From the IMG/VR virus record IMGVR_UViG_3300031787_000054: 64,000 bases of DNA, one strand, 5' to 3'. Shown one piece after another: positions 7,813-62,760 of the stretch; positions within the stretch are counted from its first letter, which is position 1, and every line of letters starts with the position of its first letter. Source of the DNA: a virus. Lineage: Duplodnaviria; Heunggongvirae; Uroviricota; Caudoviricetes. Made by a program: the position numbers and the translations under genes. The notes beneath the pieces were generated by a model, which was given only the letters and a program-made list of their open reading frames with translations, did no database searches and was not told the DNA's origin.

Positions 7813-8205
7813 ATGAAAGAATGGTTACAAGCGTCAACAATCAGTATACTAGCCGTATTTGCTCCAATTAAAGCAATACTTATAACAGTTGGCTTTCTAA
7901 TATTTATGGATTGTATTACTGGTATGCTTGCATCTCGTAAACGTGGAGAAAAGATAACTAGTGCAGCTTTAAGAAGAACAGTGACTAAAGCTTTCGTGTA
8001 TCAATCTGCTGTAATCACCGGTTTCTTAGTTGAGACATATCTAATCGATAAAGCTATTCCAATTAATAAAATTGTAGCAGGATTAATAGGTGTTGTAGAA
8101 TTTAAGTCAATACTAGAAAACCTAAACACTATTCACGGTGATGACCTATTTAAGAAACTTATTGAGAAATTAGGCAGTATTAATGATAAATCTAAAGAAG
8201 ATTAG
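7813..8205 (+). CDS. holin-like small membrane protein
   Basis: 130 aa with two to three predicted TM segments and a charged C-terminal tail. Overall architecture resembles phi29-type holins. Lies at the end of the structural block. Confidence 0.5.
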   Translation: MKEWLQASTISILAVFAPIKAILITVGFLIFMDCITGMLASRKRGEKITSAALRRTVTKAFVYQSAVITGFLVETYLIDKAIPINKIVAGLIGVVEFKSILENLNTIHGDDLFKKLIEKLGSINDKSKED

Positions 8206-20417: not shown

Positions 20418-20705
20418 CTAGTTATTCTCCTTCTGGCTCCCATCTACCATCAATTCTACTTGCAGCTCTAGCTCCTCCAATTCCTTTATTTTTATGGAAT
20501 ATAGTATATAACTTGGAGGTAACATACCAATTTGTTCTAATCTATTTAAAATTTTATCAGCATCTTGTATATCTCTACCGTCATTGCAATAATGATTTCC
20601 TGTAAGTCTTAATACATTAACTATATTTTGTATAGCTTCACTTCTTTTCACAAACTCTCCCATAATACAAAGAGTCGTATACAACTTCTTTCCCATAGCT
20701 CGCAT
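20418..20705 (-). CDS. hypothetical protein
   Basis: 95-aa ORF. Confidence 0.35.
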   Translation of the reverse strand: MRAMGKKLYTTLCIMGEFVKRSEAIQNIVNVLRLTGNHYCNDGRDIQDADKILNRLEQIGMLPPSYILYSIKIKELEELELQVELMVDGSQKENN

Positions 20706-20859
20706 TGTCTCTACACCTAAAAGTAAAACTTTCTTCAGTAAAATGTATACTATCTAATCCTCTATTACAACTACAAAAATTCTTTGCGAATTTAACTGCT
20801 AATTCTTTTTTATCTACACCACACGATACTAACAACAATAAAATAATTAATTTATACAA
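20638..20859 (-). CDS. small lipoprotein
   Basis: Signal peptide with a lipobox-like LLVSCG. 73 aa. Confidence 0.4.
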   Translation of the reverse strand: MYKLIILLLLVSCGVDKKELAVKFAKNFCSCNRGLDSIHFTEESFTFRCRDNASYGKEVVYDSLYYGRVCEKK

Positions 20860-23831: not shown

Positions 23832-24281
23832 CTAAAAATCTAATCCTAAGCCTAACATTAAAGTACCGTTGCTAATTGCTTGACCGTTGATTGACATTTT
23901 ATCATCTAATAATCTATCAAAGCCGATACCGATTAATTCTTCTTGTTCTGTTCTAACTTTAACAGTGTCTTTCTTTCTATTCACAGAAAACCCGTTAGGT
24001 CCAACACCAGCCATCACTCTAACTCTATTTTTATTTGATTCTTTTTGTTTTTCTTTAAAAATCAGAGGTTTGTCTTTTTTATTATCTTCAGTTAAAATTG
24101 CGGAAATATTCACTTTGGCTTTTCTTTTAACTACCATGTATTTATTACCATCAAAATTATATGTCTCACCATTCTTTAATGTGACAGTGATTTTTGAATC
24201 CTTAAATAATTTAGGAACTTCAATTTCTTCAGCAAAACAATTCACAGTAAATACTAATAATATCAATATGATTAATTTCAT
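23832..24281 (-). CDS. secreted protein
   Basis: N-terminal signal peptide (MKLIILILLVFTVNCFAEE). 149 aa. Confidence 0.45.
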   Translation of the reverse strand: MKLIILILLVFTVNCFAEEIEVPKLFKDSKITVTLKNGETYNFDGNKYMVVKRKAKVNISAILTEDNKKDKPLIFKEKQKESNKNRVRVMAGVGPNGFSVNRKKDTVKVRTEQEELIGIGFDRLLDDKMSINGQAISNGTLMLGLGLDF

Positions 24282-24291
24282 TTCAAACTCC

Positions 24292-24912
24292 TTAGTTAAA
24301 TGTTACAATTCTAATACCAGAACTACCTAAGCTAAATCCTATCTTATTTCCTGAGAACCAAAAACTTTCTCCGTTTGATAATTCATCAACTTTATGCGAG
24401 TTACTACAACTAGAAGAAGTAAACACTCCTACGTTATTACCATTCACTTTTGTATAATATGATGTGCCAGAAACTTGAGTACATGAACTAGATGAACTTG
24501 AATTAATTGTTACTAACGTACCTGCGTCACCTTCTGCACCTTGAGGACCAACAGGACCTTGTTCTCCATTTTGACCAGCAGGACCTTGTGGACCCACTTC
24601 ACCTTCTGGACCTTGCTCTCCTTGCAGACCTTGTTCACCTTGTAAACCATTTAATCCGTTACAAATAATAATACTGTTTTGATATATGTCACCTTCAGAT
24701 GCAGTTAAGCTATCATCTGTGTCTAAGTAAATGTCTGTACTTTTGCCACCAGTTGGACATAATAATCCCTCATCAATAATACTAATTTCAGATACCAATG
24801 AATGTGCTGATTTACCGTTTTCACCGTTGATACCACTTGAACCTTTTTGTAAAGTTAGTTTTCTTTCTTTTCCACAACTAATAACTAAAAACAGTAACAT
24901 TAATAATTTCAT
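24292..24912 (-). CDS. collagen-triple-helix-repeat lipoprotein
   Basis: Lipobox-like LFLVISCG signal. About 20 G-x-y triplets ([43 protein letters not shown]). Ser-rich C-terminal domain. Confidence 0.6.
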
Positions 24913-25620: not shown

Positions 25621-26832
25621 TTAATGAAAGTCTGAGTTATCTTTATCTAAGTATGCTTCTGAAATCCATTTTAATGACTTCCTGTTGTTTGGACAGAACT
25701 TATCATTGTATGATTCAATAGATTTAATAACTACACCTTCTCTGATTTTTTGTTCTGGACAATATACTGAATCACCTTTAGTTAATTCATATACTTTTTC
25801 TTTATTAAAAGGACCTTCGTATAATACTGGAACAACATCAAATCCTCTTTCTTCTGCATACTGACGAACTTCTTTAGGACTTAACCATACGTGTTCACTG
25901 TTATCTAATGTTTTTTTAACATCAAATAAAACAAAATGATGTCTGTCTTTAAATCCATAATCGTAATTCTTTTGGATTCCTTGACCAATTAGCTCACCAT
26001 AAATAGTTTCACCTTCTTTAATCTTATCTTTAGCCTTAACACCTTTTAAAACATTACCATATACATCTTCACCATAGAAACCAGAGTATCCGACTCTGTT
26101 AGTAAGTTCTACGTTATTAGACCCATAACAGAACTCGTATTTAGGTAATAGACCTAGCTTTCCAGAAACGATTCTTTTTAGCATATTTAAGCTCGAAAGA
26201 AGAATGGTCTTAGTATCTCCTTTCCTTGTTTTAAGTTGATTTAAGCACCCAAAGAATTCGTTTAAAGACGGAATTACTGTTGGTAACATAGATGCTCTAC
26301 AGTTACTTCCATGCAATTTTTCCTCAACTACAACTAACTCTCCTTCAGTGAATAGGTTTGGAAACCATTTTACGTTTTCTAGTCCGTTATATTTATGAAA
26401 TAATGGGTTCTCTAGTGGTTTGTTTCTAGATGTTTTAAGTCTAGGAGTAAACTCAGGAGCAGGTGGTTCGTATTTAATAATACCTAACGATTCAGATAAA
26501 TCATCCTCTAGTGAAAACTTAGATACATCAGTAAATTCTGATATTTCTTCTTTAGATATCAGCATACCCTGAGAAGCAAATCCTCTAATACGAATTTGTC
26601 TAACTCTTGAATTATGTAGCTTGATCTTACTTCCTTCTGGAAATAATTTAGATTCTAAGTTATTAGGTAATACTGAATCAATTGGAACGTAGATAATCTC
26701 ATCTCCCACAACGTATTTGTTTTTTGGAATTACCACATGAAATCCATATACGATTGCAATTTCTAATCGTTCAGCGTTTGAGTGAGGATATATCTCTAAT
26801 ATTTGAGTCAGTGGTGTTTTAAATAATGACAT
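25621..26832 (-). CDS. ATP-dependent RNA ligase (Rnl2/Rnl5-like nucleotidyltransferase with N-terminal extension)
   Basis: Motif I lysine in EEKLHGSN at about residue 172, resembling the KxHGxN of the Rnl2 family. About 160 aa of OB-like sequence precede it, as in Deinococcus/Naegleria-type Rnl5. Confidence 0.65.
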   Translation of the reverse strand: MSLFKTPLTQILEIYPHSNAERLEIAIVYGFHVVIPKNKYVVGDEIIYVPIDSVLPNNLESKLFPEGSKIKLHNSRVRQIRIRGFASQGMLISKEEISEFTDVSKFSLEDDLSESLGIIKYEPPAPEFTPRLKTSRNKPLENPLFHKYNGLENVKWFPNLFTEGELVVVEEKLHGSNCRASMLPTVIPSLNEFFGCLNQLKTRKGDTKTILLSSLNMLKRIVSGKLGLLPKYEFCYGSNNVELTNRVGYSGFYGEDVYGNVLKGVKAKDKIKEGETIYGELIGQGIQKNYDYGFKDRHHFVLFDVKKTLDNSEHVWLSPKEVRQYAEERGFDVVPVLYEGPFNKEKVYELTKGDSVYCPEQKIREGVVIKSIESYNDKFCPNNRKSLKWISEAYLDKDNSDFH

Positions 26833-32354: not shown

Positions 32355-33839
32355 TTATGAAGCAGATAATCTTTTTCGAATATCATTTAAAGATTCTTCA
32401 ATTAAAAAGTTACCATTTTCAAAAACTGTTTTCAATAAATTCTCTTTAGAGATATTAGAACTTGTATCATCGGAATATTCTAATACACCAGAATTATTTT
32501 TGAATACTGTCACTTTACCTAACGCTGAATTTTTTGTACCGTCGTCTGTCTTAGGTGCTTTGAATATTGCTTTCTCTGTTCCATTAATTGTAACAGATGT
32601 TGCTTTCATTGCAAAACCTAAAGTGTCTCTTGTGATAAATTGATATGTGTATGAACCGATTCCTAGTACAACATTAGTAGAAGCGAATCCTTTTTGTTTT
32701 AATCTCTCACAAATTTCTTTACATCTTTCAAGTGTAATCGAGTCACCGTAAATAGCTCCGATTTTAGGATTAAGTATTTTGTATCCTTGTGATGATACTG
32801 TTCCACCGAATGTTTCATATAATAATTCAATAACACCTTTGTTCTCAGGTGAACCTAGAGGAGCTTCAGGGTCTCCACATAGAATGTCAGCAGGGTCTCC
32901 ACTATCAGGACGAACCACTACTTTATCTAATGAACCTGCTCCACCATCACGAGCTAGAATTGATTCTTTTAATGAAGGTAAAATGTTTGTTACAACATTA
33001 AATAAATCCCAAGTATCTGACACAATACTAACAATACCTGTTGGATATAGTTCTTCAATGAATCTTCTATATGTTTCTCGTTCGTCTTCATATCCTCCTG
33101 CACACATTACTGAATGTTCGCTTGCTGGAACTGAACAACCAACTAATTCTTTAGTAACATCTGCATTGTAGTATTGTTCTGCATAATTAATTGCGGGTAA
33201 TGTATCTGTTCCAACGAATGATAGTAGGTGTCCAACACCAGATCGTGCTGAGTCTTCAGGTCCACTCTGTCCTCTCATAGAGAAATCGTGTCCTTGAAAT
33301 TCAACGCCAGCAGTAGAGCCTGTTGTCTCCAGTGCGTAATTATCTAATACTGAGCGGTAAGCTTTAGCAATACTTGCTGTTGTCGCTGGTTTCCATAGTA
33401 GTGATGAAAGAATAGTTTCAAGATAATTTGTTAACCAAAAGAATTCATCTTTAGTATTCTCGATTGTCATTACTGGAACTCGAAATGGTACTAACGTTCC
33501 TTCAGCTAATGCTGTTACTTTTAACGGTAAATAACCTAAATCATGTAAGTCTTCTAAGTGTTTTGTTTCAACATTTGGATTAAATAAATAAGCAGATACT
33601 TGACGCTTGTATTCATTAATAATTTCTTCTTTCTGTTTACTAAAGAACTGTGAATTAAATAATTCGTTTAATTCTTTTAATGCACCTTGTGTTCCAAAAG
33701 CTACAACGTTCTCAATTCCGTTGGCATGTTTACCTGAACGTGGTGTCCATGTACTGTATACCTTTGATGTGTTCTTTGGATACTGTACTCTATGACTAAG
33801 CTTGTAACCGTCACATGCTAATGTTGCAATTAAATTCAT
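32355..33839 (-). CDS. nadV: nicotinamide phosphoribosyltransferase family protein (NadV/Nampt-like)
   Basis: 494 aa. N-terminal LACDGYKLSHRVQYP and overall Nampt-like organisation. Confidence 0.8.
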   Translation of the reverse strand: MNLIATLACDGYKLSHRVQYPKNTSKVYSTWTPRSGKHANGIENVVAFGTQGALKELNELFNSQFFSKQKEEIINEYKRQVSAYLFNPNVETKHLEDLHDLGYLPLKVTALAEGTLVPFRVPVMTIENTKDEFFWLTNYLETILSSLLWKPATTASIAKAYRSVLDNYALETTGSTAGVEFQGHDFSMRGQSGPEDSARSGVGHLLSFVGTDTLPAINYAEQYYNADVTKELVGCSVPASEHSVMCAGGYEDERETYRRFIEELYPTGIVSIVSDTWDLFNVVTNILPSLKESILARDGGAGSLDKVVVRPDSGDPADILCGDPEAPLGSPENKGVIELLYETFGGTVSSQGYKILNPKIGAIYGDSITLERCKEICERLKQKGFASTNVVLGIGSYTYQFITRDTLGFAMKATSVTINGTEKAIFKAPKTDDGTKNSALGKVTVFKNNSGVLEYSDDTSSNISKENLLKTVFENGNFLIEESLNDIRKRLSAS

Positions 33840-34487: not shown

Positions 34488-35342
34488 TTACTTAATGTTA
34501 ATAAAGGGAATAGCGTTACTTCCTGTCATAGTTGGAAGTCTTCCGTCCCAACGTTGGATAGCTTCGTACTGGATTAATTCAGATGTTAGTGTTTTTAATT
34601 TTAAAGCATTAGACTTTGCCTCTGCTTCAGCTATTGCTAACATTGATTTAGCTTTACCTTCAGCTTCTGCAATTTGTTTTTTAGCTTGTGCTTCAGCTTC
34701 TCTTAGTTCGTTCTCTCTTTGTTGTGCTCTTTGTGTTGCTTCAATCTTAGAGTTAAGAGCAGATACAACGTTGTCTGGTAATCTAATAGAACCAATTAAA
34801 TATACTTTCTCAATAATAATACCATGCGGTTTTAAACTCTCTCTAACTAATCCTTCAACCTTTAGAAATAAGTCTGTCTTACCAGAACCATAAACAGATT
34901 CAACAGTCATTGTAGATGCTACAGTATTTAGTGCATCTCTTAAAGCGTTCTTTACTACAACAGCTTTTATTTCATCAATACCTTTCCTATACTTTTGGAA
35001 TAGTTTGCTGATCTTAGAATCATCAACAGTGAATGTTACACCCATATCAATGTTACAAGATAGACCTTCTGACGTTTGAAAAGTAAAAGATTCATCTGTT
35101 TCAGAGTCTTCCATTTCGTCTCTCGTGTAGATTTTTGTTTGTTGGAAAGTAGGGAAGATGTATAGTTCCTCATTGATCCCAACCCAATATCTACCTACAC
35201 CTAGTACTTCGTGGTCAACACCCTTACTACCGCCTAGTAGGTAAATCTTAACACCAACATTACCTGCTGGAACTTTAGAACAAGACGTTGTGAATAACGT
35301 CAGTAACAATACAATAAAAAAACCCTTCAGAAAATTAATCAT
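34488..35342 (-). CDS. SPFH/band-7 (stomatin/prohibitin-like) membrane protein
   Basis: N-terminal TM, SPFH-like core, Ala/Glu-rich coiled-coil tail (EAEAQAKKQIAEAEGKAKSMLAIAEAEAK). Confidence 0.55.
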   Translation of the reverse strand: MINFLKGFFIVLLLTLFTTSCSKVPAGNVGVKIYLLGGSKGVDHEVLGVGRYWVGINEELYIFPTFQQTKIYTRDEMEDSETDESFTFQTSEGLSCNIDMGVTFTVDDSKISKLFQKYRKGIDEIKAVVVKNALRDALNTVASTMTVESVYGSGKTDLFLKVEGLVRESLKPHGIIIEKVYLIGSIRLPDNVVSALNSKIEATQRAQQRENELREAEAQAKKQIAEAEGKAKSMLAIAEAEAKSNALKLKTLTSELIQYEAIQRWDGRLPTMTGSNAIPFINIK

Positions 35343-43033: not shown

Positions 43034-44107
43034 TTAAGCATAAGAAACACTGTCGTCATTGTTATAAGCATCATACAATAGCTTAAGTTTAGTATCGTAA
43101 TCCATACTGTTTAATACATCTTGTTCATCTTTAGATAAGGTTAAACAATATTGCAACAAAACAGATGACATAGCACTCACTACTGTCATGTCGATCTCAC
43201 TAGCTTTAGATGTCGAAGACGTTGACGATTCCTCTCTTCCGTTCGAGTAAAGCCAGTTCGAACACGAGCTTGATTGTTGACTGGCAAACCTTCTTGAAGA
43301 AGAATATGATTGACGATGAACAAATGTTCTATTAATATCTGTAACACTAATAGGTTCACCTGTGATAGCATCAACTCTCAATAGTTTATTATCGAATAAA
43401 GGGAAGCATAATGGCTTCTTCCATTTCAATTTCTCACAAGTATTCTTAATGATATCATCACTTGTACAAATAATAAAGCCACCGATCTCTTCAACTTGAG
43501 CAATAAAAAGTGGAGCATTGTATTTAAACACATCAAGAATTCTTCTACCATCTGATTGTTTACTAAGAGTAGCAACACCCCAATAACCCTCTAGAGCATC
43601 AGTTGTTTCCTGAATCTTACTTGAGTTATTAGCAACATCATTCTTTAGGTACTCATTCAAGATTGTTTCAGAATCACACGTTGAAATAATATTAGTTAAC
43701 TTATGTGAGTTATTGATAACTCCATTATGAATCAATGCTGTGTCATCAATAATAAAAGGGTGAACATTCTGAAATGTTCTAGCACAAGTAGCCCATCTTG
43801 TATGGAATATAATTGATTTAACATTCTCGAAATTAATATTTCCTGTAGATGAATACTCTGTTTCATCAAGAGCTGTAGGAACTTTATCTTTAATGACACC
43901 CTGATACTTAGCTAACTCAGTCAGTGGTTTTAAGAAAGCTTTAGACACATCAAGAAATCTTTCAGAAAACATATTCCCGTCACCATCAATAGCCGCATAA
44001 CCTAATCCGTGATTATCAGATTTAGTCATGTCAGCTTTAGATGCGAACATAAATTGTTTTGCTTTCAAACCATTTTGAATACCAAACATCACCATTACTT
44101 TACACAT
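43034..44107 (-). CDS. class-II (Ntn) glutamine amidotransferase domain protein
   Basis: Cys at position 2 (MCKV...) as the Ntn nucleophile. HTRWATCARTFQNVHPF...ALIHNGVINN resembles GATase-2 / AsnB N-terminal motifs. Confidence 0.6.
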   Translation of the reverse strand: MCKVMVMFGIQNGLKAKQFMFASKADMTKSDNHGLGYAAIDGDGNMFSERFLDVSKAFLKPLTELAKYQGVIKDKVPTALDETEYSSTGNINFENVKSIIFHTRWATCARTFQNVHPFIIDDTALIHNGVINNSHKLTNIISTCDSETILNEYLKNDVANNSSKIQETTDALEGYWGVATLSKQSDGRRILDVFKYNAPLFIAQVEEIGGFIICTSDDIIKNTCEKLKWKKPLCFPLFDNKLLRVDAITGEPISVTDINRTFVHRQSYSSSRRFASQQSSSCSNWLYSNGREESSTSSTSKASEIDMTVVSAMSSVLLQYCLTLSKDEQDVLNSMDYDTKLKLLYDAYNNDDSVSYA

Positions 44108-44116
44108 ACTTACTCC

Positions 44117-45607
44117 TTATGCAAATTTTAAAATACGGTTATTAATATAATCTAAAGATTGACTTGGGATACCTTCGATATAATTAGGAATCGTTTCAAC
44201 TTTTCTAGGAGAAGATTCTAATTTAGAAGTAGCATTAACAATAGGTAAAATAAAGTTAATCCAATTTAACATATCATCAGTATCTACTGTGCCCTCATGA
44301 ACTCTAATCTCTAATGTTTTATGTCGAGCATAAGACATAGGATTGATAACTAAGTATCTGTCAGATCGTCTACCTCCTGATGTCATGTTTGCTTTGTATT
44401 GATAGTCTTCAATGTTCGGTGACTCAGTTGGTCTACAATAAGTGTTTGATCTTCTTTGTTCTGGTTGTGACTCAACTAAAAACTTTTGAAGCTTAACTAG
44501 ATTATGAAATGCAATTGCTACATCTCTCTTTCTCATATCAAAATGAACATGCAATCCACAACTATTATTTACTGAACACTGTGCTTCTTGTAATGCAACA
44601 CCTAATCTATTTAGGATTTCGATACGATTGTTTTCTGGAACTAATACTCTGATTTCGTGAGTGAAAGGGTATCCATCTGAAGTTCTAAGTGAACCATCTG
44701 ATGTAACATTAGTCCATTTCTGTAACTTGTTTTTAATTAACACCTCTTTTAATTTACCAACGTCAGACTTAGAAATTAATTCAATCTCAATACCAATGAA
44801 TGAATCGTTGTTGTATGGTTTCTTTTCATCATTGATTAGATTCTTTTGAATGTGTTCATACATTTTTAAATACTGTCCATTAGTTTGAGCAACACCATTG
44901 TACAATTCAATAGCACCAAACCTAGTTTCTTTCTTTGTCGGACTAGACTTAACTGCTAATCTTTGTTCACGAAGTTTTTTATTAAGAGCTTGATGTGCTT
45001 TTAATTTAATAGCCTTCAAATCTTTCTTAACGATAGTCACACCATTCTGAACTACTTCAACAGTAGGCATTGGAATTTCTACTTCCAATAGTTTCTTCCC
45101 TACTGTACGTGATGCTCTAACTTTAAGTTCTTGATTCATTAACTTACTTAGCTTCTCACGATTCTCTTTAATCTTTTTAGATAAAGTATTTTCTTTATCA
45201 GTTTTACCTTTAACACCTAGTCGTTGTTGTTCCTTATCAAGAGCTTCTAACTTCTTAGTTTCTTTTAGTAAAGTGAAGAACATTGTGTTCTTATTTTCTT
45301 TAACACTAAATACTTTAATCTTTAAGTCTTTAGGAAATATAACTTTCTTGTATCTTTCAAATACTAAGTTATCTTTCAACACAATGAACTCTGTTCCTTC
45401 TTTAATTAATATCTTTTTACTATCTAACGTAAATGAAATATCTTCGTTCAATATACAACGAACATATTTATTGTTCTTATCAAACTCACCAATGTATTCA
45501 ATCTCTTTTCCAACAAAATAAGGTCCGAGTTTATTCTCTTTGTCCTTATTAATTTTGTAGATAGCACCTAACTCAAATACTTTTGTTTCCATATTACTTA
45601 CCTCCAA
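44117..45607 (-). CDS. glutamine-synthetase-like amidoligase (carboxylate-amine ligase fold) with N-terminal Lys-rich domain
   Basis: C-terminal half carries FIGIEIELIS, CGLHVHFD and LEIRVHEG. These resemble the GxExE / HxH / ExR signatures of the GCS2/YbdK/PafA-type amidoligases. Confidence 0.5.
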   Translation of the reverse strand: MEVSNMETKVFELGAIYKINKDKENKLGPYFVGKEIEYIGEFDKNNKYVRCILNEDISFTLDSKKILIKEGTEFIVLKDNLVFERYKKVIFPKDLKIKVFSVKENKNTMFFTLLKETKKLEALDKEQQRLGVKGKTDKENTLSKKIKENREKLSKLMNQELKVRASRTVGKKLLEVEIPMPTVEVVQNGVTIVKKDLKAIKLKAHQALNKKLREQRLAVKSSPTKKETRFGAIELYNGVAQTNGQYLKMYEHIQKNLINDEKKPYNNDSFIGIEIELISKSDVGKLKEVLIKNKLQKWTNVTSDGSLRTSDGYPFTHEIRVLVPENNRIEILNRLGVALQEAQCSVNNSCGLHVHFDMRKRDVAIAFHNLVKLQKFLVESQPEQRRSNTYCRPTESPNIEDYQYKANMTSGGRRSDRYLVINPMSYARHKTLEIRVHEGTVDTDDMLNWINFILPIVNATSKLESSPRKVETIPNYIEGIPSQSLDYINNRILKFA

Positions 45608-52576: not shown

Positions 52577-52819
52577 GTGATTCTCCTAGTTTAAGTATAT
52601 ATTTAATTATATATACAAGAATTTAATTTTAATCTCGACTTGTCAGGTCGATGCCGAGCTATCATTCAAGCCCCATGCCAACTCATTTTCTGAACAAAAT
52701 CAAGCACTTAGCTGTGGTTCACAATGACACCAGTATCGAAAAGTCACCAAAAACAGAGCCAAAATGCCACCAAAGCCAGTATCAAAACAACACCATCTCA
52801 ACAAATTCAAGCACTTAGA

Positions 52820-52856
52820 GCTAAGTACCTGAAATCTCGTAGCATGGTATAATAAG
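52820..52856 (+). promoter_or_regulatory. candidate extended -10 promoter (TGgTATAAT) pointing rightward
   Basis: TGGTATAAT at 52845-52853. Weak -35. Lies immediately before the alternating purine-pyrimidine tract. Confidence 0.3.
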
Positions 52857-52858
52857 AA

Positions 52859-53050
52859 CCCGTGCGTGTGTATTAATACCCGTATGCGTGTGCATATGCC
52901 CCTGCGTGTGTTTTTATATACCTGCGTGAGCGTACGTGCGAGCGTGTGCGTGCATGGGTGTGCAGGTGCGTGTAGGCGTGAGCGTGTGTGTGCATGATGC
53001 GTAGGCGTGTGTGCGAGCGTGTGCGTGCGTATGTGTGCTAGGGGGGGGGT
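52859..53050. repeat. GC-rich alternating purine-pyrimidine (GCGTGTG)n-like tract ending in G9
   Basis: Degenerate CGTG/TGCG repeats over about 190 nt in an otherwise AT-rich genome. G9 run at 53041-53049. The ORF 52700-53089 across it is a translation artefact. Confidence 0.7.
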
Positions 53051-53280
53051 ACACCCTTCGTGGTTCAGGGTGACATTGACCGAGTACATTCACTCACTTT
53101 ACCCTCTCAACTATAGAAACCAGTAACCCTTCACCCTACTACTCATTCACAACCTTTATAACAACTCTTAGTATAATAGCCTCTAAAACGAACAAAAACA
53201 GGGTTATTTGATACTTTAGTATATAGACCTAATAGTTAGTATTAAAGCTTCTAAAACCTCTTTAAAAGGATATTAAGCTT

Positions 53281-55318: not shown

Positions 55319-55470
55319 TGTATTTATTAATTATTTTAGCAACAGTTGGGTTTATAACATCAGCAATAGGGGCAAGCATGTTACAAAAAACACCAGTTAA
55401 GGGACTCCAACTTATTATACTAGGTCATGTGATAATGGCTACAACTATTGTTTTTAAAGGACTTGTATGA
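55318..55470 (+). CDS. unlisted 50-aa two-TM membrane peptide (GTG start)
   Basis: Manual translation: VYLLIILATVGFITSAIGASMLQKTPVKGLQLIILGHVIMATTIVFKGLV. The GTG overlaps the upstream TAG. The stop overlaps the next ATG. Confidence 0.3.
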   Translation: MYLLIILATVGFITSAIGASMLQKTPVKGLQLIILGHVIMATTIVFKGLV

Positions 55471-55811
55471 AGATTAAAGGTATTAAAAAAATACATTTTC
55501 ATCCTTTTGATTATAAACTCAAGTTCACAAAAGATAAAAGGTTTATTAAACGCGACTACGGTGAAACTAATTTAACTGATAAATGGATTAAAATAGGTGA
55601 CGTTAACGACGAAAAGATCATTAAACACTTCATATTACACGAAGCATTACATGTATTATTAGAAGAAGTTATTGAAAATACAGCAAAAATTAAAGATTTA
55701 GAAGACAGGGAAGAGGCAATAGTTAGAATGGTATCGCCTAGATTACAGCAATTTATTGAATCTAACCCTGATTTAATTAAATGTTACTTACCAGAGGACG
55801 ACAATGAGTAA
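55467..55811 (+). CDS. small HExxH-motif protein
   Basis: FILHEALHVLLEEV. 114 aa. Confidence 0.4.
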   Translation: MKIKGIKKIHFHPFDYKLKFTKDKRFIKRDYGETNLTDKWIKIGDVNDEKIIKHFILHEALHVLLEEVIENTAKIKDLEDREEAIVRMVSPRLQQFIESNPDLIKCYLPEDDNE

Positions 55812-56879: not shown

Positions 56880-57185
56880 ATGTCAGAAGACTTAGAGTAT
56901 TCAACCGCAGAACTAATAATTGCTCATATAGAAGAAACAAACGATATTATTGGAAACATTCGGGAATTTCAAGAACTGATCAACAACGTGTCCGATCCAT
57001 CGTTGAAGATTTTATACGAGGAAGACATAACCTCAGAATCAAAGCAACTAATGAAAGTGTGTCAGAACCTAAAGTTCCTATTGACTAATTACTTGGTTGA
57101 ATGTAAGAACAATAATAGACCAGTAGATATTAATTTTTATCGTGTTTTTAAAGAGTTAGATAAGCTAGGAGATTTAAATGAATAG
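56880..57185 (+). CDS. hypothetical protein
   Basis: 101-aa ORF. Confidence 0.4.
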   Translation: MSEDLEYSTAELIIAHIEETNDIIGNIREFQELINNVSDPSLKILYEEDITSESKQLMKVCQNLKFLLTNYLVECKNNNRPVDINFYRVFKELDKLGDLNE

Positions 57186-57600
57186 TAATAAGTACTTCAT
57201 TTGGAATAAAGGCGATGATATTCAATTAAGTAAGAACTTTAATTCAAAAGAATTCGATTGTCAGTGTTCTAGACCTGCTTGTATTGAACAAAGAATATCA
57301 ATAGACCTAATCGATAAACTAGAATTTATCAGGAAAGAGGTAAATCAACCTCTAACTGTAACATCTGGATTTCGTTGTTTTAATCACCAACAAGATTTAA
57401 AAGACAAAGGAACTGTTAGTACTGTTATTGCTCAGAAATCAACTCACGTATTAGGTGATGCTGTTGATATTAAGATACCGAAGAATAATACAGTTGAAAC
57501 GTTTCTAGAAAGATGTGAAAAACATTTCGAAAGTATCGGTTTAGCTAAAACATTTTTACATTTAGATTTGAGAAAGGGTAAAAGACGTTGGAATTATTAA
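57178..57600 (+). CDS. peptidase M15 (L-Ala-D-Glu / D-Ala-D-Ala metallopeptidase; endolysin candidate)
   Basis: SGFRCFNHQ...STHVLGDAVDIKIP...HLDL matches the zinc-binding H/D/H layout of M15 cell-wall peptidases. Confidence 0.6.
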   Translation: MNSNKYFIWNKGDDIQLSKNFNSKEFDCQCSRPACIEQRISIDLIDKLEFIRKEVNQPLTVTSGFRCFNHQQDLKDKGTVSTVIAQKSTHVLGDAVDIKIPKNNTVETFLERCEKHFESIGLAKTFLHLDLRKGKRRWNY

Positions 57601-57705: not shown

Positions 57706-57990
57706 ATGGAAAAAATCAAATCATTGATACCAGGAACTCTTTTCGTCTTATTTTGCATAAAGTCATTATTTATCTCTCCAAGTGCTTCAGAAGTAGCAAT
57801 TTGTTTCATTTTAGCAGCAATTACTGCTATATTTACGTATATAGAGAAGATAACTACTGTTAAAAGTTTAGAATTAAAAATTGAAGAAAATAATAAAAAA
57901 GTTGATGAGTATCTAGAATCAGTTAATGCTTTAAGAAATAGTGTTGACTCTGTAAAGATGTCAATTGGTATGAGGAATAACCGTGGCTAA
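57706..57990 (+). CDS. two-TM small membrane protein (holin candidate)
   Basis: 94 aa. Two TM helices followed by a charged coiled-coil tail. Immediately downstream of the M15 peptidase. Confidence 0.4.
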   Translation: MEKIKSLIPGTLFVLFCIKSLFISPSASEVAICFILAAITAIFTYIEKITTVKSLELKIEENNKKVDEYLESVNALRNSVDSVKMSIGMRNNRG

Positions 57991-58435
57991 TAACACATTA
58001 GATCAGTTATCTAAGAAATTCTCTACAGTTGAAGAATTACAAACATATTGTGATTCTCAATTCAAAATTATCCAGAAATTAACTAAACAATTAAATGATT
58101 CTAAGAAAGAAATTGACGAGTTAAAAGAAAAATATATTAAGTTAAAGGAAGCAAAGCCTTCACCTGAAGCTATTAAGTTAAGTAATGGGTCATTAGGTCA
58201 ATTAGGTGTAACAGACGAAGAAGCTATATGTGTTATGCAGTTAAACTTCCTAAAACAAATAGCGGTTGTTAGAGAATTGACACTAGAAGAATCTAAGAAA
58301 GTTGAGATTTACGTTAAAACACTTAATACTATTAGAAATGTACCTAAAAAGATAGAGTTAGAAACTAAAGACATGAGTAATGAACAATTAATTAAGCTCA
58401 TTGAAGCATCGGTTGATAGTTTTGATAAACAATAA
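57983..58435 (+). CDS. coiled-coil protein (terminase small subunit candidate)
   Basis: 150 aa. Directly upstream of, and overlapping, the terminase large subunit start. Confidence 0.35.
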   Translation: MANNTLDQLSKKFSTVEELQTYCDSQFKIIQKLTKQLNDSKKEIDELKEKYIKLKEAKPSPEAIKLSNGSLGQLGVTDEEAICVMQLNFLKQIAVVRELTLEESKKVEIYVKTLNTIRNVPKKIELETKDMSNEQLIKLIEASVDSFDKQ

Positions 58436-59919
58436 TGGAACAAACCAAACTTCCTAAGATATCTAAGCAACAAGCTAAATACGAGCTTTGGCGAAGAGGG
58501 GAATTATCTTGGAAGATGCACTCAGTTCAAAAAGAACTACATAATCTATACAAAAATTCAGGTGAAAATCAGATAATGGTGTGGTTACTATCTAGACAAA
58601 CAGGTAAGTCTTTTTGTTTAGCATTACTTGCTTGTATGGAATGTGTCACAAAACCAAATGCTATCGTAAAACTACTAACAGACACCAAAGTACATGCTCA
58701 AACTATATTTGAACCTTTATTCCGTGAGATTCTAGAGGATTGTCCTGAAGATATTAAGCCTGAATATAATAAAAGTTCCTATATTTACTACTTTCCAAAT
58801 GGCTCCCAGATACAACTAGCTGGTTCAGATGGTGGACACGCAGAAAGACTAAGAGGTCAGAAATCTACACTAGTTCTTATTGACGAAGCTGGTTTCTGTG
58901 ATAAATTAAAGTATAACGTTCTATCTATTCTATTACCAACTACAACACATACTGGCGGTAGAATCATAATGGCTTCAACTCCACCAGAAGACCCTGAACA
59001 TGAGTTTCTTGATTTCATTGAAAAAGCAGAAATGGAAGAAACCTTAATTAAAAAGACAGTATTCGATAATCCTCTTTTAAGTAAGGAACAAATAGACACT
59101 ATTATATCTAGATTCCCGTTAGGAATTAATGACCCTCAGTTTAGACGTGAGTATATGTGTGAAATTCTTAGAAGTGAGGAGAAGTCTGTATTTCCTGAAT
59201 TAAATGAGGAAAAAATGCAAAGGATAGTTGGTGAATGGGATAAGCCTGTGTTCTTTAATTCATATGTTGGTATGGATTTAGGATTTGATGACTTTACTGC
59301 TGTTATATTCCTGTATTATGATTTTATGAAAGACAAGATAGTGGTAGAAGATGAGATAGTAATTGAAGGTAAGAACTTGAAATTAGACGAGTTTGGTCAA
59401 ACTATTTTAGATAAAGAAAAACAGTTGTGGACAAATCCTTTAACTAACGAACTAATAGCTCCAGATGTCAGATGTAGTGATATCAATAAGATAGTGACAA
59501 ATGAGATAGCTAGACACACAGGGTATAAAGTATATTTTGGTGTTCCAAAAGGTAAATTTGATGAGAAAGGTTCTTCTACTAACAAACTAAGAGTATTATT
59601 AGCTAATGAAAAGGTAATAATTAATCCTAGATGTAAGACATTAATCAGACATCTAAAGAATGTACAGTGGAAGAAAAGAACATCAAATAACACTAAATTA
59701 GAGTTTAAAAGATCAATAGATGACGGACATTATGATACAGTAGATGCTTTAATTTATGCGGTTAATTCTATATCATATACAAAGAATCCATACCCTGCTG
59801 GATATAACGTAAATATGCAGAATCTTTATGTTTATGATAAGGATTCGTTTGAGGCAAGAAACGGTAATTATCAAACTAATAATATCCAAGTGTTAAAGAA
59901 ACTATTCAATAGAAAATAA
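58435..59919 (+). CDS. terminase large subunit
   Basis: Walker A WLLSRQTGKSF. Walker B VLIDEAGF. C-terminal nuclease-like acidic residues. Confidence 0.85.
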   Translation: MEQTKLPKISKQQAKYELWRRGELSWKMHSVQKELHNLYKNSGENQIMVWLLSRQTGKSFCLALLACMECVTKPNAIVKLLTDTKVHAQTIFEPLFREILEDCPEDIKPEYNKSSYIYYFPNGSQIQLAGSDGGHAERLRGQKSTLVLIDEAGFCDKLKYNVLSILLPTTTHTGGRIIMASTPPEDPEHEFLDFIEKAEMEETLIKKTVFDNPLLSKEQIDTIISRFPLGINDPQFRREYMCEILRSEEKSVFPELNEEKMQRIVGEWDKPVFFNSYVGMDLGFDDFTAVIFLYYDFMKDKIVVEDEIVIEGKNLKLDEFGQTILDKEKQLWTNPLTNELIAPDVRCSDINKIVTNEIARHTGYKVYFGVPKGKFDEKGSSTNKLRVLLANEKVIINPRCKTLIRHLKNVQWKKRTSNNTKLEFKRSIDDGHYDTVDALIYAVNSISYTKNPYPAGYNVNMQNLYVYDKDSFEARNGNYQTNNIQVLKKLFNRK

Positions 59920-59967
59920 TTCTATACTTAACAACTATAAAAAGCAATTTAAACAAAAGGTTAAGTT

Positions 59968-60708
59968 ATGTTAAAGTTACTAGGCAGCTCATTAAAATGG
60001 TTAAGTCTGTCATTATTGGTTCTTTTTATTTCAGTTAATGCTAATAGATTACACGAATCTTATTTGTTAGATTATATTGGAAACCAAGTAGTTATGGTTA
60101 CAAATGGTAATGGAGGAGGAACTGGATTTCATGTTGAAGCTCCTTCAGGAGATGTTTATATTTTAAGCAATAGACATGTGTGTGCTGTAAAGGATGATAA
60201 TAACTTTGTAACTATCATTACACAAGATGGTAGATCACATAAGAAAAAAGTAATTAAGGAATATAAAAAACACGACTTATGTTTAATTGAACCTGTTCGT
60301 GGATACTCTGGATTGGAATTAACTGAACAAAATGATTTACATTCTAAATTATATATTGTAGGTCATCCAGGATTAAGACCACTTACTTTATCTAGTGGAC
60401 ATTATATTGGAGACGACACAATTTCAATTTCTTCTCCTAATGTTGAAAAGAAAAACTGTAATGGTAAATTTGAAAAGATTCCAGAAAACTCACTTGAATA
60501 CTTCTTTTTTGGATTACAATCAATATGTGTTAATTATTTTGATAGTTATATGACAGATGCTCCTGTTTATGGTGGAAATAGCGGTTCACCGATGGTTGAT
60601 GCTAGAGGTAACGTTTGGGGAGTAGTATTCGCTAAATCAATGAACGCTGTTCACAATGGTTATATTGTTCCTATTGATTTTGTTAAGGATTTTTTAAAGA
60701 AATATTAA
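59968..60708 (+). CDS. secreted trypsin-fold serine protease (S1B/glutamyl-endopeptidase-like)
   Basis: Signal peptide. His in SNRHVC, Asp in KHDLCLIE, Ser in GGNSGSPMV (the GNSGSP variant typical of V8/Spl/exfoliative-toxin-type S1B enzymes). Confidence 0.65.
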   Translation: MLKLLGSSLKWLSLSLLVLFISVNANRLHESYLLDYIGNQVVMVTNGNGGGTGFHVEAPSGDVYILSNRHVCAVKDDNNFVTIITQDGRSHKKKVIKEYKKHDLCLIEPVRGYSGLELTEQNDLHSKLYIVGHPGLRPLTLSSGHYIGDDTISISSPNVEKKNCNGKFEKIPENSLEYFFFGLQSICVNYFDSYMTDAPVYGGNSGSPMVDARGNVWGVVFAKSMNAVHNGYIVPIDFVKDFLKKY

Positions 60709-60720
60709 TTAGGATTCCAA

Positions 60721-62760
60721 ATGGACGATAATAAAAATAATCCAATGGACCAATATTTTGCTCGTAAAAAAGCAGAAGAATGTGCCCACGCATTATTACA
60801 GAAAGGAAGAACCTTCTTTAATATATTAGAAGGTAATTCTTACATCTATAAAATTCAAAATATGTGGAGAGCATACTCTGGTTCATATAGCACAGAGAAC
60901 GGTGAAGGTCATCAAATATCATTTACTGGTGAACAAGGTGAGTTAGTTAAACTACCTGTTAATCACTTTTCTAATCTAGCAAGACATACATATAATATGG
61001 TTACAGCTAATCGTCCTATTATGGAAGCTAGAGCAATCAATACTGATTATAAATCATTATCCCAAACATATTTAGCTAATGGTATATTAGACTACTATAT
61101 GCGTGAAAAGGGATTAGAAGATGTTCTAAATAAAGCAGTAGAGTATGCCATCGTTTTAGGTTCTGGTTATGTTAAACTAGAATGGAACGCTACTTCAGGA
61201 GAAGCAGTAGATGTTGACCCTGAAACAGGTGAATTACATTATACAGGTGAAATTGAATTTAAACCAGTTGACCCTCTTAACGTTATATTTGATGGAACAA
61301 AAGAAACATGGAACCATGAATGGATTGTTATTAGATCATTTCAAAATAAGTTCAATCTAATGGCTAAGTTCCCAGAATATGCACAGAAGATTTCAGAACT
61401 GGATACTAAAAACGCAAATTCTTTATATCGTTTATCTTTGTGGTCAAACGATGACACAGTTGATGTCCCTGTATATGAATTCTATCATAAGAAAACAGAA
61501 GCTATGCCTGAAGGTAGATACATGTTATTCTGTTCAGATGATATCGTTCTTTTAGACACACCAATGCCATACAATAATATTCCAGTACATAGAATTGTTC
61601 CAAGAGAAATACTAGGAACTTGTTACGGATATTCAGACATGTTTGATGTTTTCCCTATTCAAGAAATGATCAACGCTACTTATTCAGCTATAGCTACAAA
61701 TCAAAACGCTTTTGCTGTTCAGAATGTTTATATACCAAGAGAAGCAGATATCAATATCACTTCCATTGCTGGTGGTATGCAAGTATTTGAAGGTAATGCT
61801 AAACCTGAATCATTAAATCTAACAGAAACACCTGCTGAAGTTTATAAATTCTTAGAAATTTTAATTCAATCAGCTGAAACTATGTCTGGTATTAGTTCTG
61901 TCACTAGAGGAAATCCAGAAGCATCTTTAGAATCAGGTGCTGCATTAGCATTGGTTCAATCTATGTCTTTACAGTTCATTAATGGATTACAACAAAGTTA
62001 TGTTAAGATGGTTGAATCTGTTGGTACAGCTCTAATACAAATTTTAAAAGATTATGCTCATACACCGAAGTTAGTTGCTTTAGTTGGTAGAAATAATAGA
62101 TCGTTACTAAAACAATTTACAGGTAAAGAAATAGCTAACATTAATAGAGTTGTAGTTGATATTGGTAACCCTTTATCAAGAACAATTGCTGGTCGTGTTC
62201 AAATGGCAGATCAGTTAGCACAAATGAAACTATTAAAGAATCCTCAACAATATTTCCAAGTAATGAATACTGGTAAAATTGACGTTCTTTTTGAGGGAGA
62301 AATTAGTGAATTATTACTAATTAAATCTGAGAACGAAAGCTTGTTGTCTGGAGAAAAAGTATACGCTTCTATTTTAGATCAACATAGAGCACATATATTA
62401 GAACATAAATCAGTCATGGCTGACCCTGATTTAAGAAAAGACCAAACGTTGGTACAGAATGTACAAGAACATATTAAAGAGCATATTGATTTATTAAGAA
62501 ATGGAGATGCAGATTTGTTACAATTGATTGGTGAACAACCTCTTAATCCTCCACAACAAGCAGGTAATCCTGAACTTCCTCCAGGTCCAATGAATAATCA
62601 AGAAGTAATTGAAGGAAGTCCTATACCAGGTGTACAACAAGCACCTAATCAAACAAAACAAATGGATGACATGGGACAATCTAGTCCTCCAGCGGTAGAT
62701 GCTTCATTATTGCCTAATCCAGATATCCAAGCAAATCAAGCACCAGGAGGAGTTAAATAA
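60721..62760 (+). CDS. portal protein (putative)
   Basis: 679 aa in the position after terminase. Q/P-rich C-terminal tail. No motif confirmation possible by eye. Confidence 0.5.
   Translation: MDDNKNNPMDQYFARKKAEECAHALLQKGRTFFNILEGNSYIYKIQNMWRAYSGSYSTENGEGHQISFTGEQGELVKLPVNHFSNLARHTYNMVTANRPIMEARAINTDYKSLSQTYLANGILDYYMREKGLEDVLNKAVEYAIVLGSGYVKLEWNATSGEAVDVDPETGELHYTGEIEFKPVDPLNVIFDGTKETWNHEWIVIRSFQNKFNLMAKFPEYAQKISELDTKNANSLYRLSLWSNDDTVDVPVYEFYHKKTEAMPEGRYMLFCSDDIVLLDTPMPYNNIPVHRIVPREILGTCYGYSDMFDVFPIQEMINATYSAIATNQNAFAVQNVYIPREADINITSIAGGMQVFEGNAKPESLNLTETPAEVYKFLEILIQSAETMSGISSVTRGNPEASLESGAALALVQSMSLQFINGLQQSYVKMVESVGTALIQILKDYAHTPKLVALVGRNNRSLLKQFTGKEIANINRVVVDIGNPLSRTIAGRVQMADQLAQMKLLKNPQQYFQVMNTGKIDVLFEGEISELLLIKSENESLLSGEKVYASILDQHRAHILEHKSVMADPDLRKDQTLVQNVQEHIKEHIDLLRNGDADLLQLIGEQPLNPPQQAGNPELPPGPMNNQEVIEGSPIPGVQQAPNQTKQMDDMGQSSPPAVDASLLPNPDIQANQAPGGVK

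Follow-up and report, generated by a model that had tools for sequence, protein, structure and literature searches.

What is understood of phage lysis and egress concerns chiefly holins, endolysins and spanins. A recognisable spanin is missing from about 15% of the phages with Gram-negative hosts (10.1101/515445), and there are precedents for effectors other than spanins at the last step of lysis (10.1101/515445, PMC5707550), among them LysB, an enzyme that cuts the tether of the outer layer (PMC5707550). Concerning proteases, host DegP degrades the antiholin RI of T4 (Tran 2007, as given in the passage of PMC8385771 that cites it). Our literature searches brought up no periplasmic protease encoded by a phage to which a defined role, or one in lysis, had been assigned. 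Here, we looked at a protease gene in the IMG/VR virus record IMGVR_UViG_3300031787_000054 (Caudoviricetes), in a stretch of 64,000 nucleotides referred to below as the window. The gene lies between those of the terminase large subunit (TerL) and of the portal protein. It belongs to a PDZ-less, HtrA-like and apparently N-terminally anchored family of uncultivated phages, with an unusual invariant pair of Cys residues beside the catalytic residues. We consider it slightly better than an even bet that the product is an accessory protease that is made late, exported and probably tethered to the membrane and that cuts proteins of the envelope, serving either lysis and egress or exclusion.

Fold and catalytic residues of the protease

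The open reading frame (ORF) is real and its signal is far beyond chance, given the score of its match to the Pfam family Trypsin_2, the 65 homologues of a first search, the 925 representatives of an exhaustive one and a ratio of nonsynonymous to synonymous substitution rates (dN/dS) of 0.22. Trypsin_2 (PF13365; PA clan, S1-type fold) matched residues 51-219 over the whole model (positions 1-144) with E=8e-16 and 59.5 bits, above the gathering threshold of 27.6. A first-pass annotation had described a secreted serine protease of the S1B type (V8/Spl/exfoliative-toxin-like), encoded between terminase and portal and carrying a complete His-Asp-Ser triad in the motifs SNRHVC, KHDLCLIE and GGNSGSPMV. 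Its coordinates proved exact, both neighbours were recognised by their own profiles, and the triad is present as described, H70, D103 and S205 following in the order expected of a Trypsin_2 member on a double beta-barrel. The GNSGSP variant is there as well. Its first Ser can be specified as the nucleophile, since S205 aligns with the Ser of the HtrA GNS motif in HMMER alignments.

To place the enzyme among the S1 peptidases, a 43-member alignment of the family (A1) was used as input to AlphaFold (AF2). The model, with a mean predicted local distance difference test score (pLDDT) of 95.1, consists of a long N-terminal helix followed by the double beta-barrel. When it was compared with the PDB by Foldseek, the top match was Rv3671c/MarP of Mycobacterium tuberculosis (E 4e-12), followed by DegS-deltaPDZ, DegP, DegQ and HtrA1, and no S1B enzyme was found in the top 50. 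With the family profile against PDB sequences, Deg2, Deg9 and HTRA1 scored about 3e-14, SplA 1.7e-13 and SplB 1e-11, meaning that by sequence the Spl proteases rank close behind HtrA, with a smaller gap than in the structure search. The best NCBIfam matches were MarP, HtrA, DegP and DegS, at 25-49 bits against cut-offs of 250-470, and the protein fell short of the curated models (TIGR02037 DegP/HtrA, 44.7 against 416 bits; TIGR02038 DegS, 24.7 against 423; NF033740 MarP, 48.7 against 250). Among the viral structures of BFVD, the nearest matches were generic trypsin-like proteins, none of them closer. A PDZ domain was not detected with Pfam, and the protein stops 41 residues past S205. The comparison with S1B that the first-pass annotation had proposed as a check thus upholds a peptidase (Trypsin_2) and moves the nearest class to the HtrA-like S1C enzymes, with Spl close behind; as the best fit, S1B is ruled out by the structure searches and the curated models, despite the S1B-like GNSGSP motif. 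The protein is a divergent S1/Trypsin_2 peptidase, its modelled domain being structurally nearest to HtrA/DegS/MarP (S1C), and it falls into no curated subfamily. The intact triad suggests an active serine endopeptidase made of the protease domain only, as the explanation favoured above supposes.

The 65 homologues of the first search are 194-271 aa long and, where they bear a Joint Genome Institute (JGI) name, are called 'S1-C subfamily serine protease'. The exhaustive profile search gave its 925 representatives (at 50% identity) with E<=1e-30. The best 150 of them are all single-domain proteins of 203-302 aa, most of which align from the first ~25 positions of the profile, that is, with the N-terminal segment included. 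Conservation was counted in 73 distinct members from the fetched loci, 69 of them aligned at the His motif. D103, G203, S205, G206 and S207 are invariant (73/73), and N204 and P208 nearly so (70/73 and 72/73). A Cys stands two residues after the catalytic His (C72) in 69/69 aligned members and two residues after the catalytic Asp (C105) in 72/73. These two Cys residues may form a disulfide, which would restrict activity to an oxidising compartment. A second pair, Cys164 and Cys187, is conserved in the closer subfamily only (45/73 and 48/73), the other members being mostly gapped there.

No homologue was found in cultured phages when five diverse members were run by tblastn against 50,697 phage records, with weak staphylococcal matches at most. 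A scan of bacterial genomes gave a single close copy; the contig of 55 kb that carries it was binned into a metagenome-assembled genome and is probably a phage contig. The remaining matches were cellular Trypsin_2 proteins of at most 30% identity, so that the bacterial matches provide no clue to the host. Close relatives were found on phage contigs of environmental metagenomes only. The family is large, phage-specific, known from metagenomes only and under purifying selection.

Predicted export

The signal peptide described in the first-pass annotation holds up as a prediction. The N-terminus reads MLKLLGSSLK, then WLSLSLLVLFISV, then NA-N, thus a positive n-region, then a hydrophobic core of 13 residues and a site of the V-x-A type. 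In the AF2 model, a single unbroken helix covers residues 2-40, hence both the hydrophobic segment and the linker that follows it. All full-length members of the family have a K/R-rich start and a hydrophobic segment, with a charge of +1 to +6 on its N-terminal flank and about 0 on its C-terminal flank, from which an N-in/C-out orientation is predicted. The median length of the uncharged stretch is 18 aa, and 63 of 107 members reach or exceed this length.

Signal peptidase I does not cut before Pro at +1. In 29 of 111 sequences a small-x-small site stands immediately before Pro, many others have no such site at all, and most relatives are left without a usable signal-peptidase site. About 35-47 residues separate the hydrophobic segment from the His motif, a spacing that varies little across nearly all members. 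This family pattern agrees with a type II anchor that is not cleaved off and, as in DegS, would keep the barrel near the membrane. With its shorter core (13 residues) and plausible VNA-N site, the window protein itself could be cleaved. Canonical lipoboxes occur in one syntenic and one non-syntenic homologue (ITGC in L074, LVGC in L045); these variants are consistent with an extracytoplasmic site, although two or three of them in about 100 sequences exceed the chance expectation by a modest margin only. Two special kinds of anchor were rejected: for a signal-arrest-release (SAR) anchor, the fraction of small residues is 0.33 (background 0.28), and for a Cys-regulated one, the Cys frequency (0.027) equals that of other transmembrane (TM)-like segments of the same contigs. 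Altogether, export is well supported as a prediction from these features.

Gene neighbourhoods and distribution

To define the context of the gene, 80 IMG/VR loci were retrieved by the protease, those contigs being the ones kept from a motif scan of the whole collection, and 8 more by exact-protein look-up. In about 70 of the 88 loci, TerL and portal homologues lie within a few kb of the protease gene. Three gene orders were seen. In group A, to which the window belongs, the order is endolysin, two-TM protein, TerS-like gene, TerL, protease and portal. In group B1, a GNAT gene, a ClpP-type head-maturation protease (CLP_protease 9e-28, phrog_94 5.5e-35), a three-TM protein and a small gene precede the protease, and another small gene, TerL, portal, scaffold and an SU10-type capsid gene follow it. 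In group B2, the protease gene comes after a helix-turn-helix (HTH)/TerS-like gene and often overlaps the start of TerL, which is followed by a small TM protein, portal, scaffold and capsid. Elsewhere, the protease gene was found between DNA polymerase A and the 5'-3' exonuclease in T7-like contigs, and near GroES/GroEL or ligase genes in other contigs.

A different picture was obtained when relatives were retrieved by the portal only, which gave 38 informative loci with portals 34-66% identical to that of the window. In 37 of these 38 sister loci TerL abuts the portal gene and there is no protease within 6 kb, their TerL and portal being equally similar to those of the window. None of the non-carrier contigs, seven of which are 68-86 kb long, is among the 80 protease-bearing contigs. 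The non-carriers keep the backbone of endolysin, two-TM protein, TerS-like gene, TerL and portal, and in one of them, L202, the downstream structural genes are the same as in the window. In a neighbour-joining tree of portals, all carriers of the TerL-protease-portal order fall into one clade, while sister lineages do not have the gene there; three of them (L044, L049, L050) have it at other positions. A universal core gene of the packaging module is therefore overturned by the portal-based retrieval, though the gene is near-universal in clade B2 (8 of 10 informative portal-retrieved loci). The protease gene is accessory but long-lived: it was gained at the TerL-portal junction in one lineage and kept under purifying selection. 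Its distribution among sister phages rules out an essential role in capsid assembly or packaging, and nothing ties the gene to the capsid module.

The gene is separated from TerL by 48 nt and from the portal gene by 12 nt, and neither gap holds a promoter or terminator of its own. Between 56800 and 63600 there are no terminator-like sites, and promoter-like sites are no more numerous than in shuffled sequences. Since there is no terminator and no excess of promoters from TerL to the post-portal gene, the protease gene is most simply part of the late transcript. Its GC content (0.308, against 0.321 for the window) is not deviant, and a search around it for direct or inverted repeats, as the signature of an insertion, brought up nothing but short AT-rich matches attributable to chance. 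In the comparison with L046, a relative that is 76% identical, the protease has a dN/dS of 0.22, and TerL and portal each have one of 0.07; the gene evolves about three times faster than these two neighbours.

The phage encodes DNA polymerase, primase-helicase, ribonucleotide reductase (RNR), ligases and nicotinamide phosphoribosyltransferase (NAMPT), no integrase was seen among the ORFs scanned, and the phage looks virulent. Its nearest cultured relative is a Silvanigrella phage (TerL 27% and portal 29% identical). This relative and the small single-domain M15 endolysin suggest that the host is probably Gram-negative. The features of the locus are collected in the table.

Features of the protease locus in the window, by position
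Feature	Position	Strand	Remarks
M15 endolysin, single-domain	57178-57600	+	Peptidase_M15_3 3.8e-10; phrog_894 endolysin 7.5e-25
Two-TM holin-like protein	57706-57990	+	94 aa; from a TM scan of all window ORFs
TerL	58435-59919	+	Directly upstream of the protease gene; Terminase_6N 1.5e-16; phrog_2 1.6e-38
Ribosome-binding site AAAGG	59956-59960	+	7 nt 5' of the ATG; from the sequence
Protease gene	59968-60708	+	246 aa; ATG at 59968, stop codon ends at 60708
Residues 1-26, predicted export signal	59968-60045	+	n-region (K3, K10); hydrophobic core W11-V23; candidate signal-peptidase site VNA-N after A25
Residues 26-40, conserved helix	60043-60087	+	Links the hydrophobic segment to the first beta-strand; A1 consensus HxxYxRxxVG
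His70 (cat) and Cys72 (tgt), N-x-H-V-C motif	60175-60183	+	His70 at 60175-60177, His in 69/69 aligned; invariant in A1
Asp103 (gac) and Cys105 (tgt), H-D-L-C-L motif	60274-60282	+	Asp103 at 60274-60276
Variable insertion loop, Cys164 to Cys187	60457-60528	+	Cys164 at 60457-60459, Cys187 at 60526-60528; pair at least 90% conserved in A1
G202-G203-N204-S205-G206-S207-P208	60571-60591	+	Oxyanion-hole glycine and nucleophile; aligned to GNSGG of DegQ/HtrA; S205 (agc) at 60580-60582; GGNSGSPMV spans 60571-60597
Portal protein, P22/SU10 type	60721-62760	+	Directly downstream of the protease gene; P22_portal 4.9e-10; phrog_156 1.1e-25

Several other observations were made on these contigs. A 130-aa three-TM holin-like protein is encoded at 7813-8205 (+) in the window, with sub-cut-off matches to NCBIfam holin_1 (2.8e-6) and TIGR01593 (1e-3). 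Its gene ends the plus-strand structural block, far from the M15 endolysin and its two-TM neighbour, and the phage may therefore have two holin-type genes. The region upstream of the lysis/terminase block repeatedly encodes small proteins that contain an HExxH motif: HEALH in the window (55467-55811, +), HEVTH in clade B2 (L065:157-537; phrog_1233, function not assigned) and HEMTH in protease-less sister phages, in a 172-aa version with an N-terminal hydrophobic segment (L172:1059-1577). They have no Pfam match and may be metallopeptidases. The protease-less sisters also carry, beside the endolysin, an alliinase-like pyridoxal phosphate (PLP) enzyme (L172:2198-3136; Alliinase_C 2.7e-36) that is unusual for a phage. 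The TerL ORF is about 840 aa long in L012, L029, L077, L078 and L178, against about 490 aa elsewhere, which suggests an intein or another in-frame insertion. In B1 loci, the ClpP-type head-maturation protease (L008:2184-2765) lies upstream of TerL by the GNAT acetyltransferase gene and not in the portal-capsid interval, and these phages carry a separate scaffold gene too. A 165-aa downstream protein of L001 (phrog_1128, 9e-6), considered as a ClpP-like protease, was rejected as it has no PDB or Pfam support. After the portal gene, most carriers of the TerL-protease-portal order have a set of three genes, c12 (e.g. L021:7328-7954), c24 and c31, found neither in the window nor in L046. The product of c12 is a transglycosylase-like protein of about 200 aa (phrog_4067, 2e-6), and the set also comprises a basic protein of 100 aa and a membrane-like one rich in Gly and Ala.

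Elsewhere in the window, a GC-rich island (52860-53040; up to 58% against a background of 32%) made up of degenerate (GCGTGT)n and of repeats of 10-20 nt coincides exactly with the switch from the minus-strand early block to the plus-strand late block and is a candidate origin or regulatory region. The His/Thr-rich 'ORF' of 129 aa over it (52700-53089, -) is probably an artefact. On the minus strand, the early/middle region encodes a set of predicted exported proteins (24292-24912, 20638-20859, 34488-35342 and 23832-24281): one with a lipobox and collagen-like repeats, another lipobox protein of 73 aa, one that resembles HflK/SPFH and has a lipobox-like N-terminus, and a protein of 149 aa with a signal peptide. 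The same strand also carries an amidoligase region (43034-45607), the NAMPT gene (32355-33839; phrog_448, E 8e-196) and an RNA ligase gene (25621-26832). The amidoligase adjoins a glutamine-amidotransferase-like gene, possibly as a module for the modification of DNA or of a metabolite.

Possible roles and comparison with known systems

From these features, we infer how the protease might act. It would be made late, on the TerL-portal transcript. Its positively charged, hydrophobic N-terminus would direct it to the Sec pathway with an N-in/C-out topology and thereby place the catalytic domain outside the cytoplasm, at the periplasmic face of the inner membrane in the probable Gram-negative host. 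There, an uncleaved signal anchor would tether it, which appears to be the case in most relatives, or cleavage at VNA-N would set it free. Its likeliest job would be the cleavage of host envelope proteins in late infection, aiding lysis and the release of progeny, for example by cutting membrane or wall tethers or lysis regulators. Alternatively, it might remove receptors or block superinfection, and we hold help in lysis and egress on the one hand, and receptor removal or superinfection exclusion on the other, to be comparably likely. In both cases, the exported envelope-acting enzyme of the first-pass annotation stands as a prediction.

In favour of a role in lysis or egress, the lysis genes (endolysin and two-TM protein) lie two to three genes upstream of the protease gene, and no spanin-like pair or lipobox ORF was found in the late operon when all window ORFs were scanned for TM segments and lipoboxes. 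Moreover, the B2 protease sits in the TerS-TerL slot, where the spanin genes of T7 are located. Receptor removal or exclusion is in line with the accessory distribution and the faster evolution of the gene. Several points weigh against the favoured explanation as a whole. The protease-less sisters share the endolysin and the two-TM pair with no obvious replacement for the protease, so that it cannot be an essential step of lysis. The Gram-negative assignment comes from the endolysin type and the Silvanigrella phage relative. The family has no cultured relative, and export, activity and substrate are predictions. Finally, the absence of the gene beyond 6 kb in non-carriers was read from the motif scan, which could miss divergent copies.

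Among the other explanations, the best placed is a virion-internal or ejection protein, which would sit close to the portal inside the virion and be delivered along with the DNA, its N-terminus entering the membrane and its protease domain clearing periplasmic obstacles. The gene lies beside that of the portal in the window clade, and the post-portal set of most carriers, with its transglycosylase-like c12 product that has an N-terminal hydrophobic segment and then the Gly/Ala-rich membrane-like protein, resembles podovirus gene sets for internal-core or ejection proteins such as T7 gp14-16 and P22 gp7/16/20. A trypsin-fold domain is also found in a baseplate-hub protein of Agrobacterium phage Atu_ph07. 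However, the window phage itself has no c12, c24 or c31, and sister phages with the same portal and TerL, including L202 with its shared downstream structural genes, lack the protease. In the T7-like contigs the gene is placed in the replication block and not among structural genes, and two homologues have lipoboxes. In addition, an N-terminus so hydrophobic, with a positive n-region, would be expected to go to the membrane during synthesis. We therefore consider this explanation improbable. An essential ejection protein is unlikely from the distribution, and the virion protein that the first-pass annotation had left as an option does not withstand the sister phages and the T7-like contigs.

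Still less credible is a virulence or lysogenic-conversion cargo in the form of a secreted glutamyl endopeptidase of the S1B type (V8/Spl/exfoliative-toxin-like) that would benefit the host bacterium, an explanation that we regard as very improbable even though the GNSGSP-type motif is shared. S1C-type domains come first in both structure searches and in NCBIfam. DNA polymerase, primase-helicase, RNR and ligases are encoded by the phage itself, no integrase was seen among the scanned ORFs, and since the phage looks virulent, a factor of lysogenic conversion is unlikely. The gene lies inside the late operon without a promoter or terminator of its own, and its close relatives are on environmental phage contigs only, bacterial ones being at most 30% identical save for the one probable phage contig. 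Of the moron or virulence cargo once proposed, the presence or absence at one and the same junction, a classical moron trait, is retained; an own promoter or terminator and a deviant composition were not found, and the virulence part falls with the phage looking virulent.

Hardly any weight is given to a head-maturation or scaffold-processing protease of unusual fold, which would suit the packaging/morphogenesis block and the adjacency to TerL and portal in about 70 of the 88 loci; it was rejected on account of the lack of any match to prohead protease families (S78/U35, S77, S14 ClpP, S49), the separate scaffold and SU10-type capsid genes, the additional ClpP-type maturation protease in B1, the 37 of 38 sister loci with the same TerL/portal module and no protease, and a catalytic domain predicted outside the cytoplasm, as the first-pass annotation had anticipated in setting this protein apart from prohead proteases.

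If the favoured explanation is carried further, the membrane-tethered periplasmic protease of a large group of uncultivated aquatic phages may constitute a novel type of effector, of egress or of the envelope, a proposal that we put forward tentatively and think rather doubtful. Such an effector would cut trans-envelope tethers near the inner membrane, lysis regulators or receptors in late infection, and might depend for its activity on the oxidising periplasm, where the invariant Cys residues next to the catalytic His and Asp would be joined by a disulfide. By this, the spanin step might be supplemented or replaced, or re-adsorption and superinfection prevented. The family is a concrete candidate for a class of envelope-acting enzymes that has gone unrecognised in phages. 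The enzyme class itself is ordinary, and annotation pipelines already label such proteases. If it were only a generic accessory protease, its annotation would still be corrected to S1C-like and not S1B, exported and not a prohead protease.

Compared with known systems, the protein shares with the prohead proteases (HK97 gp4/S78, T4 gp21/S77, ClpP/S14, S49) that it is a phage-encoded serine protease encoded near the portal, whereas these have other folds and act in the cytoplasm, and a ClpP-type one coexists with the trypsin-fold gene in B1. With the S1B enzymes (V8/SspA, SplA-F, exfoliative toxins) it shares the GNSGSP-type motif, but its closest relatives in sequence and structure are not S1B. 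The HtrA-type protease domain of S1C is its best structural match. Nevertheless, DegS/HtrA score 25-46 bits against cut-offs of 416-470, have GNSGG where the phage protein has GNSGSP and do not have the invariant Cys pair of the phage family, and the phage protein has no PDZ domain. MarP, a membrane-anchored periplasmic S1 protease of M. tuberculosis, is 22% identical, and with 48.7 bits under the cut-off of 250 the phage protein is not a member of the MarP family. MarP is a cellular stress protease with four TM helices, whereas the phage protein is the product of an accessory phage gene with one hydrophobic segment, and the Cys positions differ, those of the phage protein being at His+2 and Asp+2. 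Accessory lysis effectors such as the spanins Rz/Rz1, T7 gp18.5/18.7, the phiKT gp28 disruptin and mycobacteriophage LysB are likewise late and extracytoplasmic, as the phage protease is predicted to be. It differs from them in being dispensable in sister phages and from the spanins in having a protease barrel with neither coiled coil nor partner lipoprotein, so that its action would be enzymatic and not fusogenic. With the i-spanin, it would share the predicted topology, an N-terminal TM segment with the bulk of the protein in the periplasm.
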